Virus record (IMG/VR): IMGVR_UViG_3300009594_000001
Source of the DNA: a virus
Lineage: Duplodnaviria; Heunggongvirae; Uroviricota; Caudoviricetes
Length of the DNA stretch: 39,649 nucleotides
Strand: one strand, 5' to 3'
Position 1 is the first letter of the stretch, and every line of letters begins with the position of its first letter. The notes under the pieces are model-generated. The model was not told the DNA's origin, did no database searches, and worked only from the letters and a program-made list of their open reading frames with translations. Position numbers and translations under genes: made by a program. Below are positions 32,886 to 34,984 of the stretch, piece after piece.

Positions 32886-34133
32886 TTACAGTTCGCCGAC
32901 TTCCACTTTCTCCTCTGTCGGTTCATCATTTTCTAGGCCAATGAGGTCGATGATCCTCTTAGGTTGGGCACCCATGCCTTTTCCGTCGCCTAGTGCCAGT
33001 TTCTCGATGGCCTTCCTGACATTCGTAGCAATCATCCCGTCATCATCCAGTTCATGGTTGTTCATGATCTGACCAGTGCAGAACTTGTCGAGCCGCAGTC
33101 TGGTAATCTCCGACCATAGGACTTTCCTGTGCCACTTATTCCACTTGGCGACGTTCTTCCAGTGGATGCACTTCTCGATCACGTTCTGGGTATAGGCTTC
33201 GATCTTCTTACTCAGAGTCTCTACCTTTTCCTTGAGGAACGGGAAGTATGCCAGTACCTCGTCTTGTTCTTCATTCACGACAACCGGAACGAGGTATTTG
33301 TAGTAAGTCTTGTCGAGCATGTGGTGGTACTTCACGTACTCTGGGTCTTTTACCTTGATTCTGTGCCCGGTATTTTTGTCTCGGAACACGAACCCCTCGA
33401 AGTCCGGCGTTGTCTTCTTTATGTCCTCCATCATTTGGGTGATGTACTCATGGTTGGTGGACGCCGCCCAGCGACGTGGCCTCTTGGCCCCGATCTTGGT
33501 CGCAACCTTGTCCAGTTCCTCCTCCGTGAGTTCGACATAGGATTTTAGGTTCCTTGCTCCCAGCAGATAGAGGCCGTAGTGTTCTGGCTGGTACTTCGTC
33601 CAGACGAAGCTCGCCTCGTGGATGAACTCGAACACGTAGGTCATGTTTGCACGATGCGTCCAGTCGAGGGCCTTGACGAACTCCCCGATCAAGCTGAGGT
33701 ATTTGTATGGCTTACCGTGGAAGCCAGTGATGACCATCTCCATGTCTTTTGCATGGGTACAGATCATCCTCCTGGTGTGCCACAGCAATTCGTTGCCCTG
33801 GAAAAAGACGCCGACCATAGTGCCGTCGAGTTTCTCGATCATCTCGGCATTCTTCAGGTCTACAGGAGCGGCCTCCTTCTCGCCTTGGTTGTAGAACCGG
33901 ACAAACGAGAAGCTCCTAATTCGCTCTAGTGGGTCTTTGGACGCAGCCTTAGTGACAACCATGCCACGGACTAGTTGGTTGAAGTCGTTTCTTGGGCCTG
34001 GGCCGTAGTTGAGGATGAAGTGGTCTCCCTTGTCGCCGCACCAGATGTTGTGGTGCTTCAGCCACTCATTCCCCTCTATGCCGGTCTTGGAGATGATTTT
34101 ACGCAGTCTGTCTAGTTCATGCATAGAAAGCAT
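32886..34133 (-). CDS. RNA ligase, T4 Rnl1-like nucleotidyltransferase
   Basis: Motif I EKLDGT, Ia HTRR, III VFEF, IIIa LYLLGAR, IV EGFVF, V KVKDPEY. Confidence 0.85.
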   Translation of the reverse strand: MLSMHELDRLRKIISKTGIEGNEWLKHHNIWCGDKGDHFILNYGPGPRNDFNQLVRGMVVTKAASKDPLERIRSFSFVRFYNQGEKEAAPVDLKNAEMIEKLDGTMVGVFFQGNELLWHTRRMICTHAKDMEMVITGFHGKPYKYLSLIGEFVKALDWTHRANMTYVFEFIHEASFVWTKYQPEHYGLYLLGARNLKSYVELTEEELDKVATKIGAKRPRRWAASTNHEYITQMMEDIKKTTPDFEGFVFRDKNTGHRIKVKDPEYVKYHHMLDKTYYKYLVPVVVNEEQDEVLAYFPFLKEKVETLSKKIEAYTQNVIEKCIHWKNVAKWNKWHRKVLWSEITRLRLDKFCTGQIMNNHELDDDGMIATNVRKAIEKLALGDGKGMGAQPKRIIDLIGLENDEPTEEKVEVGEL

Positions 34134-34178: not shown

Positions 34179-34616
34179 TTATTCTGGAAGAGCTTTAATG
34201 AACCTGGACCACTCTGGATGGTTATGTATAACATCCTGGTGATTTGCATATTCGTTGGCATAAGCCATACAGAATAGTTCCTCGTTGTTCTGGTCTTGTT
34301 TGTTCTTGGTACGCTTGACTATCTGCGTCCAAGCCTTTCGCATATCTTTATCGACTAGGTACTTCCAGACGGTATGGCCTATCTCATGTAGAAACGTGAA
34401 TTCCCTGCCATAGTTCCAGGGGGCGGCGATGGTGATGGTTTTCTTTTTTTCGTCTATGAACCCGACATTCTCGCCATCGCTTAGGGTTGGGGAGGATATA
34501 AACTTGAATTTGTAGCTCTTGACCAAGGCACGATGTCTCTTGGGCAGTTTCTTCAGCGTTTCTTTAGCATTGTTTTCGTAGGTGTCAGCCCGCTCCAAGA
34601 ATTCTTTGAAATTCAT
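34179..34616 (-). CDS. HExxH zinc-metallopeptidase-like protein with MNFKEFLE N-terminus
   Basis: FLHEIGHTVW and downstream NEELFC; TACATA 4 nt before the ATG. Confidence 0.7.
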   Translation of the reverse strand: MNFKEFLERADTYENNAKETLKKLPKRHRALVKSYKFKFISSPTLSDGENVGFIDEKKKTITIAAPWNYGREFTFLHEIGHTVWKYLVDKDMRKAWTQIVKRTKNKQDQNNEELFCMAYANEYANHQDVIHNHPEWSRFIKALPE

Positions 34617-34686
34617 ATCCTATGTAGAAGGAAAAGGCTAGAAAAAGCTAACCCTTCTGGCTATACTACATAGGCGACTTGTTTGA

Positions 34687-34914
34687 GTCGGCACAAAGAC
34701 CTGTCGGAGAAAGACCTTTAGCTGTGGGGGTATCGGAATAACATAGTTGATGAACTGCGATCAATAATGCTGTCTTTCTACCAAGGGAAGATGGCTACGC
34801 CAATTGATTGGTCGTAGTTTTAGGCTAGTTTCGGCTTGGTTGCTTTGGCAGTTAAGCCCGCTCAGTTCGACGCTGGGAAATGCAGGTCGCTATATAGCGT
34901 GGTTGATGGCCGAC
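34687..34914 (+). ncRNA. Candidate structured ncRNA of unknown family
   Basis: No credible ORF; closing helices GTCGGC/GCCGAC and GACCTG/CAGGTC; at least five internal hairpins including a GTTCGACGC T-loop; promoter upstream and terminator downstream. Confidence 0.55.
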
Positions 34915-34919
34915 AGAAG

Positions 34920-34953
34920 AGCCGCCAGATACGAAGCTGGCGGCTATTTTTTT
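34920..34953 (+). terminator. Intrinsic terminator
   Basis: AGCCGCCAG-ATACGAAG-CTGGCGGCT-ATTTTTTT. Confidence 0.85.
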
Positions 34954-34984
34954 GAAATCCACCACCCACGGATACATATCACAT

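Follow-up and report, generated by a model that had tools for sequence, protein, structure and literature searches.

A structured RNA unit between a divergent Zn-protein gene and phoH in a huge phage, apparently undescribed

Huge phages are known for their translation and RNA-handling genes; to our knowledge, their own non-coding RNAs are almost uncharted. Among the RNAs carried by phages and prophages, GOLLD and ROOL are comparable to the RNA considered here, being multi-helix non-coding RNAs with conserved loops, discovered by comparative analysis and of unknown function. They are 500-800 nt long and are often found near tRNA genes, whereas the present RNA is ~280 nt long, has a Zn-protein gene and phoH as its neighbours and gives no match to the Rfam models of either group. 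Terminating riboswitch leaders resemble it in that they, too, combine a conserved fold with an intrinsic terminator that directly adjoins the closing helix and precedes a gene. It differs from them in that it matches no known aptamer, the alternative pairing is weak and the gene downstream probably has a start signal of its own. Finally, the YrlA/YrlB RNAs of bacteria and phages are likewise small structured RNAs with a T-arm-like hairpin in genomes that contain Ro60. YrlA-type Y RNAs are characterized by the motif GNCGAAN0-1G near the 5' end and by nearly invariant T-arm and D-arm mimics; they are 80-130 nt long, and their genes share the strand of the Ro60 gene and lie no more than about 4 kb from it (Chen et al. 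2014, PMC4201824). The RNA of the present phage is more than twice as long, lacks a D arm and is located 15 kb from the Ro60 gene.

The window, that is, the whole stretch of 39,649 nt that was analysed, corresponds to bases 103048-142696 of a 435,946-base IMG/VR virus record and belongs to a huge phage. The RNA unit lies at ~137.7-138.0 kb of the record and is housed in a divergent gap of 368 nt (window 34617-34984). The genes and signals around it, in window coordinates, are the following:

32886-34133, minus strand: T4 gp63/Rnl1-type RNA ligase gene, 415 aa (phrog_562, E = 6e-32)
34179-34616, minus strand: HExxH (Zn-protein) gene, 145 aa
34621-34626, minus strand: TA(C/G)ATA box of the divergent HExxH gene, 4-5 nt before its ATG
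34639-34667, plus strand: sigma-70-type promoter, consisting of a -35-like TAGAAA (34639-44), a 17-nt spacer and a -10 TATACT (34662-67)
34920-34953, plus strand: intrinsic terminator, a 9-bp G+C-rich stem (34920-34945) followed by a U tract (T7)
34973-34978, plus strand: TACATA box, outside the RNA and 6 nt ahead of the ATG of phoH
34985, plus strand: ATG of phoH (PF02562, E = 3e-68)

The Rnl1-type ligase gene is thus placed one gene to the left of the HExxH gene and two to the left of phoH, and phoH is followed on the right by the gene of a Gp80-like fibre protein. The 145-aa HExxH protein matched no Pfam or PHROG family. The phage genome also encodes a Ro60 (TROVE) protein, the gene of which is found at about 153.3-154.2 kb of the record, on the same strand as the RNA. 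The order of ligase gene, Zn-protein gene, phoH and Gp80-like gene is also kept in another locus, L254.

The promoter-to-terminator unit spans window positions 34674-34953 on the plus strand, and its transcription is predicted to start near G34674. The initial annotation of this DNA had proposed a TAGAAA-N17-TATACT promoter at 34639-34667 and an intrinsic terminator behind the RNA. Both are indeed present, and the promoter is kept in relatives, its motifs GCTATACTA and GAAAAA being unchanged in 4/4 homologs while the spacer between them diverges. The terminator displays a compensatory change from G-C to A-U in the homolog L131, and its end is 32 nt away from the phoH ATG. A TACATA box said to overlap the -10 element did not hold up, as it is not conserved in relatives. 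Both divergent genes have a TA(C/G)ATA box 4-6 nt ahead of their ATG and no Shine-Dalgarno sequence, and the box is kept in close as well as distant relatives (seen in L003, L004, L131, L030, L079, L002 and L254). The TACATA before phoH is probably the start signal of phoH itself. The box resembles a late-promoter or leaderless-start signal, and loci with a different RNA in the same position (family B, see below) carry CTCATAAATA plus AAGGAG before phoH in its place.

To search for relatives, ~130 syntenic loci were gathered via the neighbouring proteins from metagenomes and IMG/VR, and Logan and ENA contigs were added. The RNA of the window was recognisable in three further distinct sequences, all of them from related huge phages:

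L003, 2163-2448, minus strand: match to the RNA
L004, 627-912, minus strand: match to the RNA
L131, 1330-1634, minus strand: match to the RNA

Two more loci, L258 and L259, are copies identical to L003 that come from other samples. A covariance model built on the RNA body (R1) was run over >130 syntenic loci with default filters and over ~40 loci with filters off, and in these loci it matched nothing beyond L003, L004, L131 and the L003-identical L258 and L259. In the phage's own genome R1 gave no second copy, indicating that the RNA is single-copy. GenBank phages searched by BLAST with the gap, and with the 4 kb surrounding it, contained no match, and four conserved blocks scanned as exact patterns through viral and genome contig collections yielded either nothing or chance 15-mer matches. 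The contigs with the next-closest PhoH and Zn-proteins (74-63% identity) have other RNAs or none at this position. The similarity of GUAUCGGAUAAC to L039 and L052 was rejected as chance, since their own relatives do not have it. The distribution of the RNA gene is narrow, comprising four distinct phage sequences.

The four phages have diverged widely: four-fold degenerate sites of phoH and the Zn-protein genes share only 40-68% identity, which is close to saturation, and the stretch upstream of the -10 element 47-67%. By contrast, identity amounts to 76-90% in the RNA body and to 77-89% in the terminator. Comparison of the sequences therefore provides good support for purifying selection acting on the RNA unit. 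Comparison of the four homologs revealed no conserved ORF in the unit, in agreement with the earlier statement that it contains no sizeable reading frame.

The plus strand from 34668 to 34953 folds at -108.2 kcal/mol (z = -4.95), a value that no shuffle equalled, and the minus strand folds at only -81.1 kcal/mol. G-U pairs account for 21% of pair cells and would be mismatches on the other strand, which identifies the plus strand as the one transcribed; the same assignment had been made initially from the G-U pairs. In an alignment of the four distinct sequences that was itself fitted to the model, and whose small size entails low statistical power, 97.5% of pair cells are standard pairs and 15 out of 79 predicted pairs display double (compensatory) changes. 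Column shuffles did not reach any of five measures (0/500), and when the 3' partners were slid by 1-3 columns, 28-44% of cells remained paired with 0-3 double changes. The elements of the fold are listed below:

34675-34690, plus strand: P1, 5'-terminal hairpin CGACUU/GAGUCG with a variable loop; kept in 4/4 sequences, with one-sided changes only
34701-34916, plus strand: RNA body, closed by P2 and P3, which lead to a four-way junction
34701-07/34910-16, plus strand: P2, 7 bp, CUGUCGG/CCGACAG; 7/7 pairs in 4/4 sequences, one double change (compensatory G-C to A-U in L131)
34713-16/34901-04, plus strand: P3, 4 bp
34718-34855, plus strand: long arm P4-P8, ~140 nt
34718-32/34841-55, plus strand: P4, two double-change pairs
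34733-39/34828-34, plus strand: P5, one double-change pair
34744-48/34823-27, plus strand: P6
34752-65/34807-20, plus strand: P7, seven double-change pairs
34769-95, plus strand: P8, apical hairpin of 11 bp, two double-change pairs
34780-34785, plus strand: P8 loop (A/G)CCAAG, fully complementary to the invariant sequence CUUGGU of an internal loop (34835-40, between P4 and P5)
34856-61/34882-87, plus strand: P9 (arm 34856-34887), one compensatory pair
34888-34899, plus strand: P11, hairpin CGCU/AGCG with a variable loop, one double change (A-U to U-A swap in two sequences)

The four-way junction has almost no linker nucleotides, and beyond its closing stem it carries the arms P4-P8, P9 and P11. 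Among the unpaired columns, 64 out of 106 are invariant, as expected for tertiary or protein contacts. This map of supported helices is a direct starting point for probing and pull-downs. It differs considerably from the one drawn initially: compensatory changes do occur among the four homologs, but they largely support other helices than those claimed. Of the two closing helices proposed, GTCGGC/GCCGAC is incompatible with both P1 and P2 and has an additional mismatch in L131, and GACCTGT/GCAGGTC retains 4-5 of its 7 pairs in relatives. The hairpins placed at 34714-31, 34746-65, 34796-816 and 34823-41 give way to the long-range covarying helices P4-P7; indeed, a U to C substitution in L131 breaks the first of them, yet it is compensated in P4. 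The 11-bp hairpin at 34769-34795 was correctly recognised and is now P8, and a hairpin claimed at 34889-34898 reappears as P11 at 34888-34899.

The loop (A/G)CCAAG and the internal loop CUUGGU can form 6/6 pairs in 4/4 sequences, with A-U or G-U at the variable position and no double change. On the basis of this complementarity they are a candidate for a loop-loop or dimer contact. By a rough geometric estimate, ~26 bp of helix separate the two loops, and the contact would need sharp bends of the arm or two molecules. In the J8/7 bulge, an 11-nt stretch, ACGCUAAUUAG, is invariant in L003, L004 and L131 and contains a perfect palindrome, CUAAUUAG; the segment of the window aligned with it (34796-34806) has CAAUUG instead, which is also palindromic. 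The palindrome could be a dimerisation or protein-binding site, or it could be due to chance.

Comparison with catalogued RNAs gave no relatives. At the gathering thresholds of Rfam 15 there was no match in the window or in 20 related loci, and at E values up to 10 only unrelated sub-threshold noise appeared, which differed between homologs. The initial annotation, too, had recognised no Rfam family. A full-text search of the literature turned up no account of an RNA preceding phoH in huge phages. The structured RNA gene is apparently undescribed, and no catalogued RNA family matches it.

We consider it very probable that window positions 34674-34953 (+) represent a real structured RNA gene. 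The unit has a promoter and a terminator of its own, lacks a conserved ORF and is conserved beyond the neutral level, these being the hallmarks of a stand-alone sRNA gene. Likewise, the conservation of promoter and terminator, the selection on the unit and the compensatory changes lend good support to the earlier proposal of a structured phage RNA that is transcribed on its own and falls into no known family. The reading that we favour as a whole, with a probability of roughly 0.55, goes further: a stand-alone ~280-nt non-coding RNA gene, transcribed early by the host RNA polymerase, the product of which acts in trans as a protein-bound scaffold or decoy and is not a leader of phoH. We infer that transcription would start from the sigma-70-type promoter, probably by the host RNA polymerase and early in infection, and would be ended by the Rho-independent terminator 32 nt before phoH. 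According to its supported helices, the RNA folds into a protective 5' hairpin followed by the 7-bp and 4-bp helices and the four-way junction, which carries a bent arm of ~140 nt, a short arm whose UUCGACG loop resembles a T-loop, and a small hairpin. By analogy, this RNA most likely acts in trans and is bound by protein, serving as a folded scaffold or decoy rather than as the leader of the phoH mRNA.

The alternative that survives best, although we regard it as fairly unlikely, is a cis-acting leader of phoH, either riboswitch-like or a protein-controlled attenuator, in which the folded body would respond to a ligand or protein and choose between terminator and antiterminator, thereby setting the level of read-through. 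Indeed, the order of elements is the classic one, with a promoter, a conserved fold of ~250 nt, a terminator and a gene 32 nt downstream. The closing helix P2 ends 3 nt short of the terminator, and a terminator directly upstream of phoH would allow regulation by read-through. Moreover, when the 3' half of the terminator is omitted, its 5' half pairs with the 5' end of the RNA (GGCGACU) in 4/4 sequences, and an A-to-G substitution in L131 improves the pairing. This candidate antiterminator is formed by the following segments:

34673-34680/34919-34927: candidate antiterminator pairing, which excludes both the 5' hairpin and the terminator

However, the pairing is short, contains an internal mismatch and shows no double change, and full-length minimum-energy folds pick P1 plus the terminator in 4/4 sequences. 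No known aptamer class matches the RNA. Furthermore, the stretch from the terminator to the phoH ATG contains the conserved TA(C/G)ATA box and lacks a Shine-Dalgarno sequence, so that a long read-through mRNA would presumably be poorly translated, and the divergent gene has the same box without any RNA upstream. Many relatives with spacers of 36-120 nt, in which phoH adjoins the Zn-protein gene, do without the RNA altogether. Conversely, family B, another RNA found in this slot, stays beside the Zn-protein gene in L129, L104 and L120, although phoH is >1 kb away. The own box of phoH, the weak alternative pairing and the existence of RNA-less relatives therefore favour a free-standing gene, and a phoH leader is less likely than a stand-alone RNA.

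Appreciably less probable still is a tRNA mimic or Y-RNA-like ligand, either as a partner of the phage Ro60 or as a decoy against host nucleases that target tRNA. The P9 arm contains a T-loop-like hairpin, CAG-UUCGACG-CUG (34863-75, plus strand), whose loop varies only in L131, by the addition of one U, and the sequence GUUCGACGC, a match to GUUCRANNC, is present in 3/4 sequences. The four-way junction core, the Ro60 protein encoded in the genome and the T4 Rnl1-like ligase two genes away would also fit such a ligand. Regarding the T-arm-like hairpin noted initially, its UUCGACG loop is found at 34863-34875, but the stem is of 3-5 bp and its second pair is a U-U mismatch in two sequences, L003 and L004, and the loop in L131 has 8 nt. 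ARAGORN detected no tRNA or tmRNA gene in the window, and the Rfam search of the window matched neither. Acceptor, D and anticodon arms are absent from the RNA; the lack of the acceptor and anticodon arms had been pointed out before, and no D-arm mimic is identifiable. A YrlA-type Y RNA was rejected, given that a regular-expression search did not find GNCGAAN0-1G in any of the four sequences, the Ro60 gene is 15 kb away and the length is ~280 nt. The functions suggested initially, a tRNA-mimic decoy or a binder of RNA polymerase or the ribosome, gained no support beyond the one T-loop-like hairpin.

Finally, it is highly improbable that the stretch is no RNA gene and instead acts as DNA, as an operator array or replication origin, or encodes a small protein: the region is one of divergent promoters, with a short palindrome, CTAATTAG, in three sequences and a TTG-initiated frame that opens at the same column in 4/4, but the compensatory changes keep G-U-rich RNA helices that a DNA site would not require, an origin was rejected as no GC-skew switch was found at the locus, and a small-protein gene was rejected because the frames shift between homologs after about 12 codons and have no ribosome-binding site.

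The RNA of the window is not the only one to occupy the space between the Zn-protein gene and phoH. Of 53 non-redundant loci with a spacer of >=200 nt, 40 possess a phoH-strand terminator, which in the majority of cases is located within about 110 nt of phoH, and in most of them a TATAAT is found about 45-55 nt from the start of the divergent gene. A different and larger RNA of ~450-500 nt, family B, occupies the slot in at least 23 related loci; it has its own TATAAT promoter and terminator and the core motifs GGCGAACC, GGCGGAAAGC and GAGCAGCAAUC. Examples are:

L039, 1988-2442, minus strand: family B
L058, 653-1142, minus strand: family B
L041, 1982-2354, minus strand: family B
L035, 2000-2320, minus strand: family B

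Family B has no match in Rfam, and in a rough alignment of six sequences 54 out of 103 predicted pairs show compensatory changes. It resembles the RNA of the window in its position in the slot, the TATAAT promoter near the divergent gene, the 5' hairpin, the nested closing helices and the terminator just before phoH. By contrast, the slot RNAs show no detectable sequence or covariance-model similarity to the RNA of the window, and their sizes range from ~150 to ~500 nt. Iterative nhmmer searches found no link between the window RNA and family B, and in a k-mer search for motifs common to all spacer RNAs only the promoter and the terminator exceeded shuffled controls.

One may speculate that the window RNA, family B and the types represented by L002 and L254 are one fast-evolving, clade-wide RNA gene, whose product would serve as RNA component, or as regulator, of a ribonucleoprotein not yet described; the protein partner would be a conserved neighbour (the PhoH ATPase, the HExxH protein or the Rnl1-type ligase), although we consider this doubtful. 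The RNA of the window is a compact four-way-junction RNA, clearly under selection and without a relative among catalogued RNAs, and dozens of related huge phages fill the same slot with promoter-to-terminator RNA units of different sequence. If the slot RNAs share a role, they would represent a conserved RNA-based function of the clade and could open a first way into the function of phage PhoH or its neighbours; if they share none, the slot would be a hotspot for the birth of phage RNA genes.

Two further loci contain promoter-led units of their own kind. In L002 (2668-3000), the unit is of about 240 nt, G+C-rich and without a clear terminator. Both this unit and the RNA of the window have a 5' hairpin capped by a GNRA or U-rich loop, followed by CACAAG, and nested closing helices, and R1 does not match L002. 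In L254 (1267-1500), another promoter-led non-coding unit is about 150 nt long and ends in a terminator.
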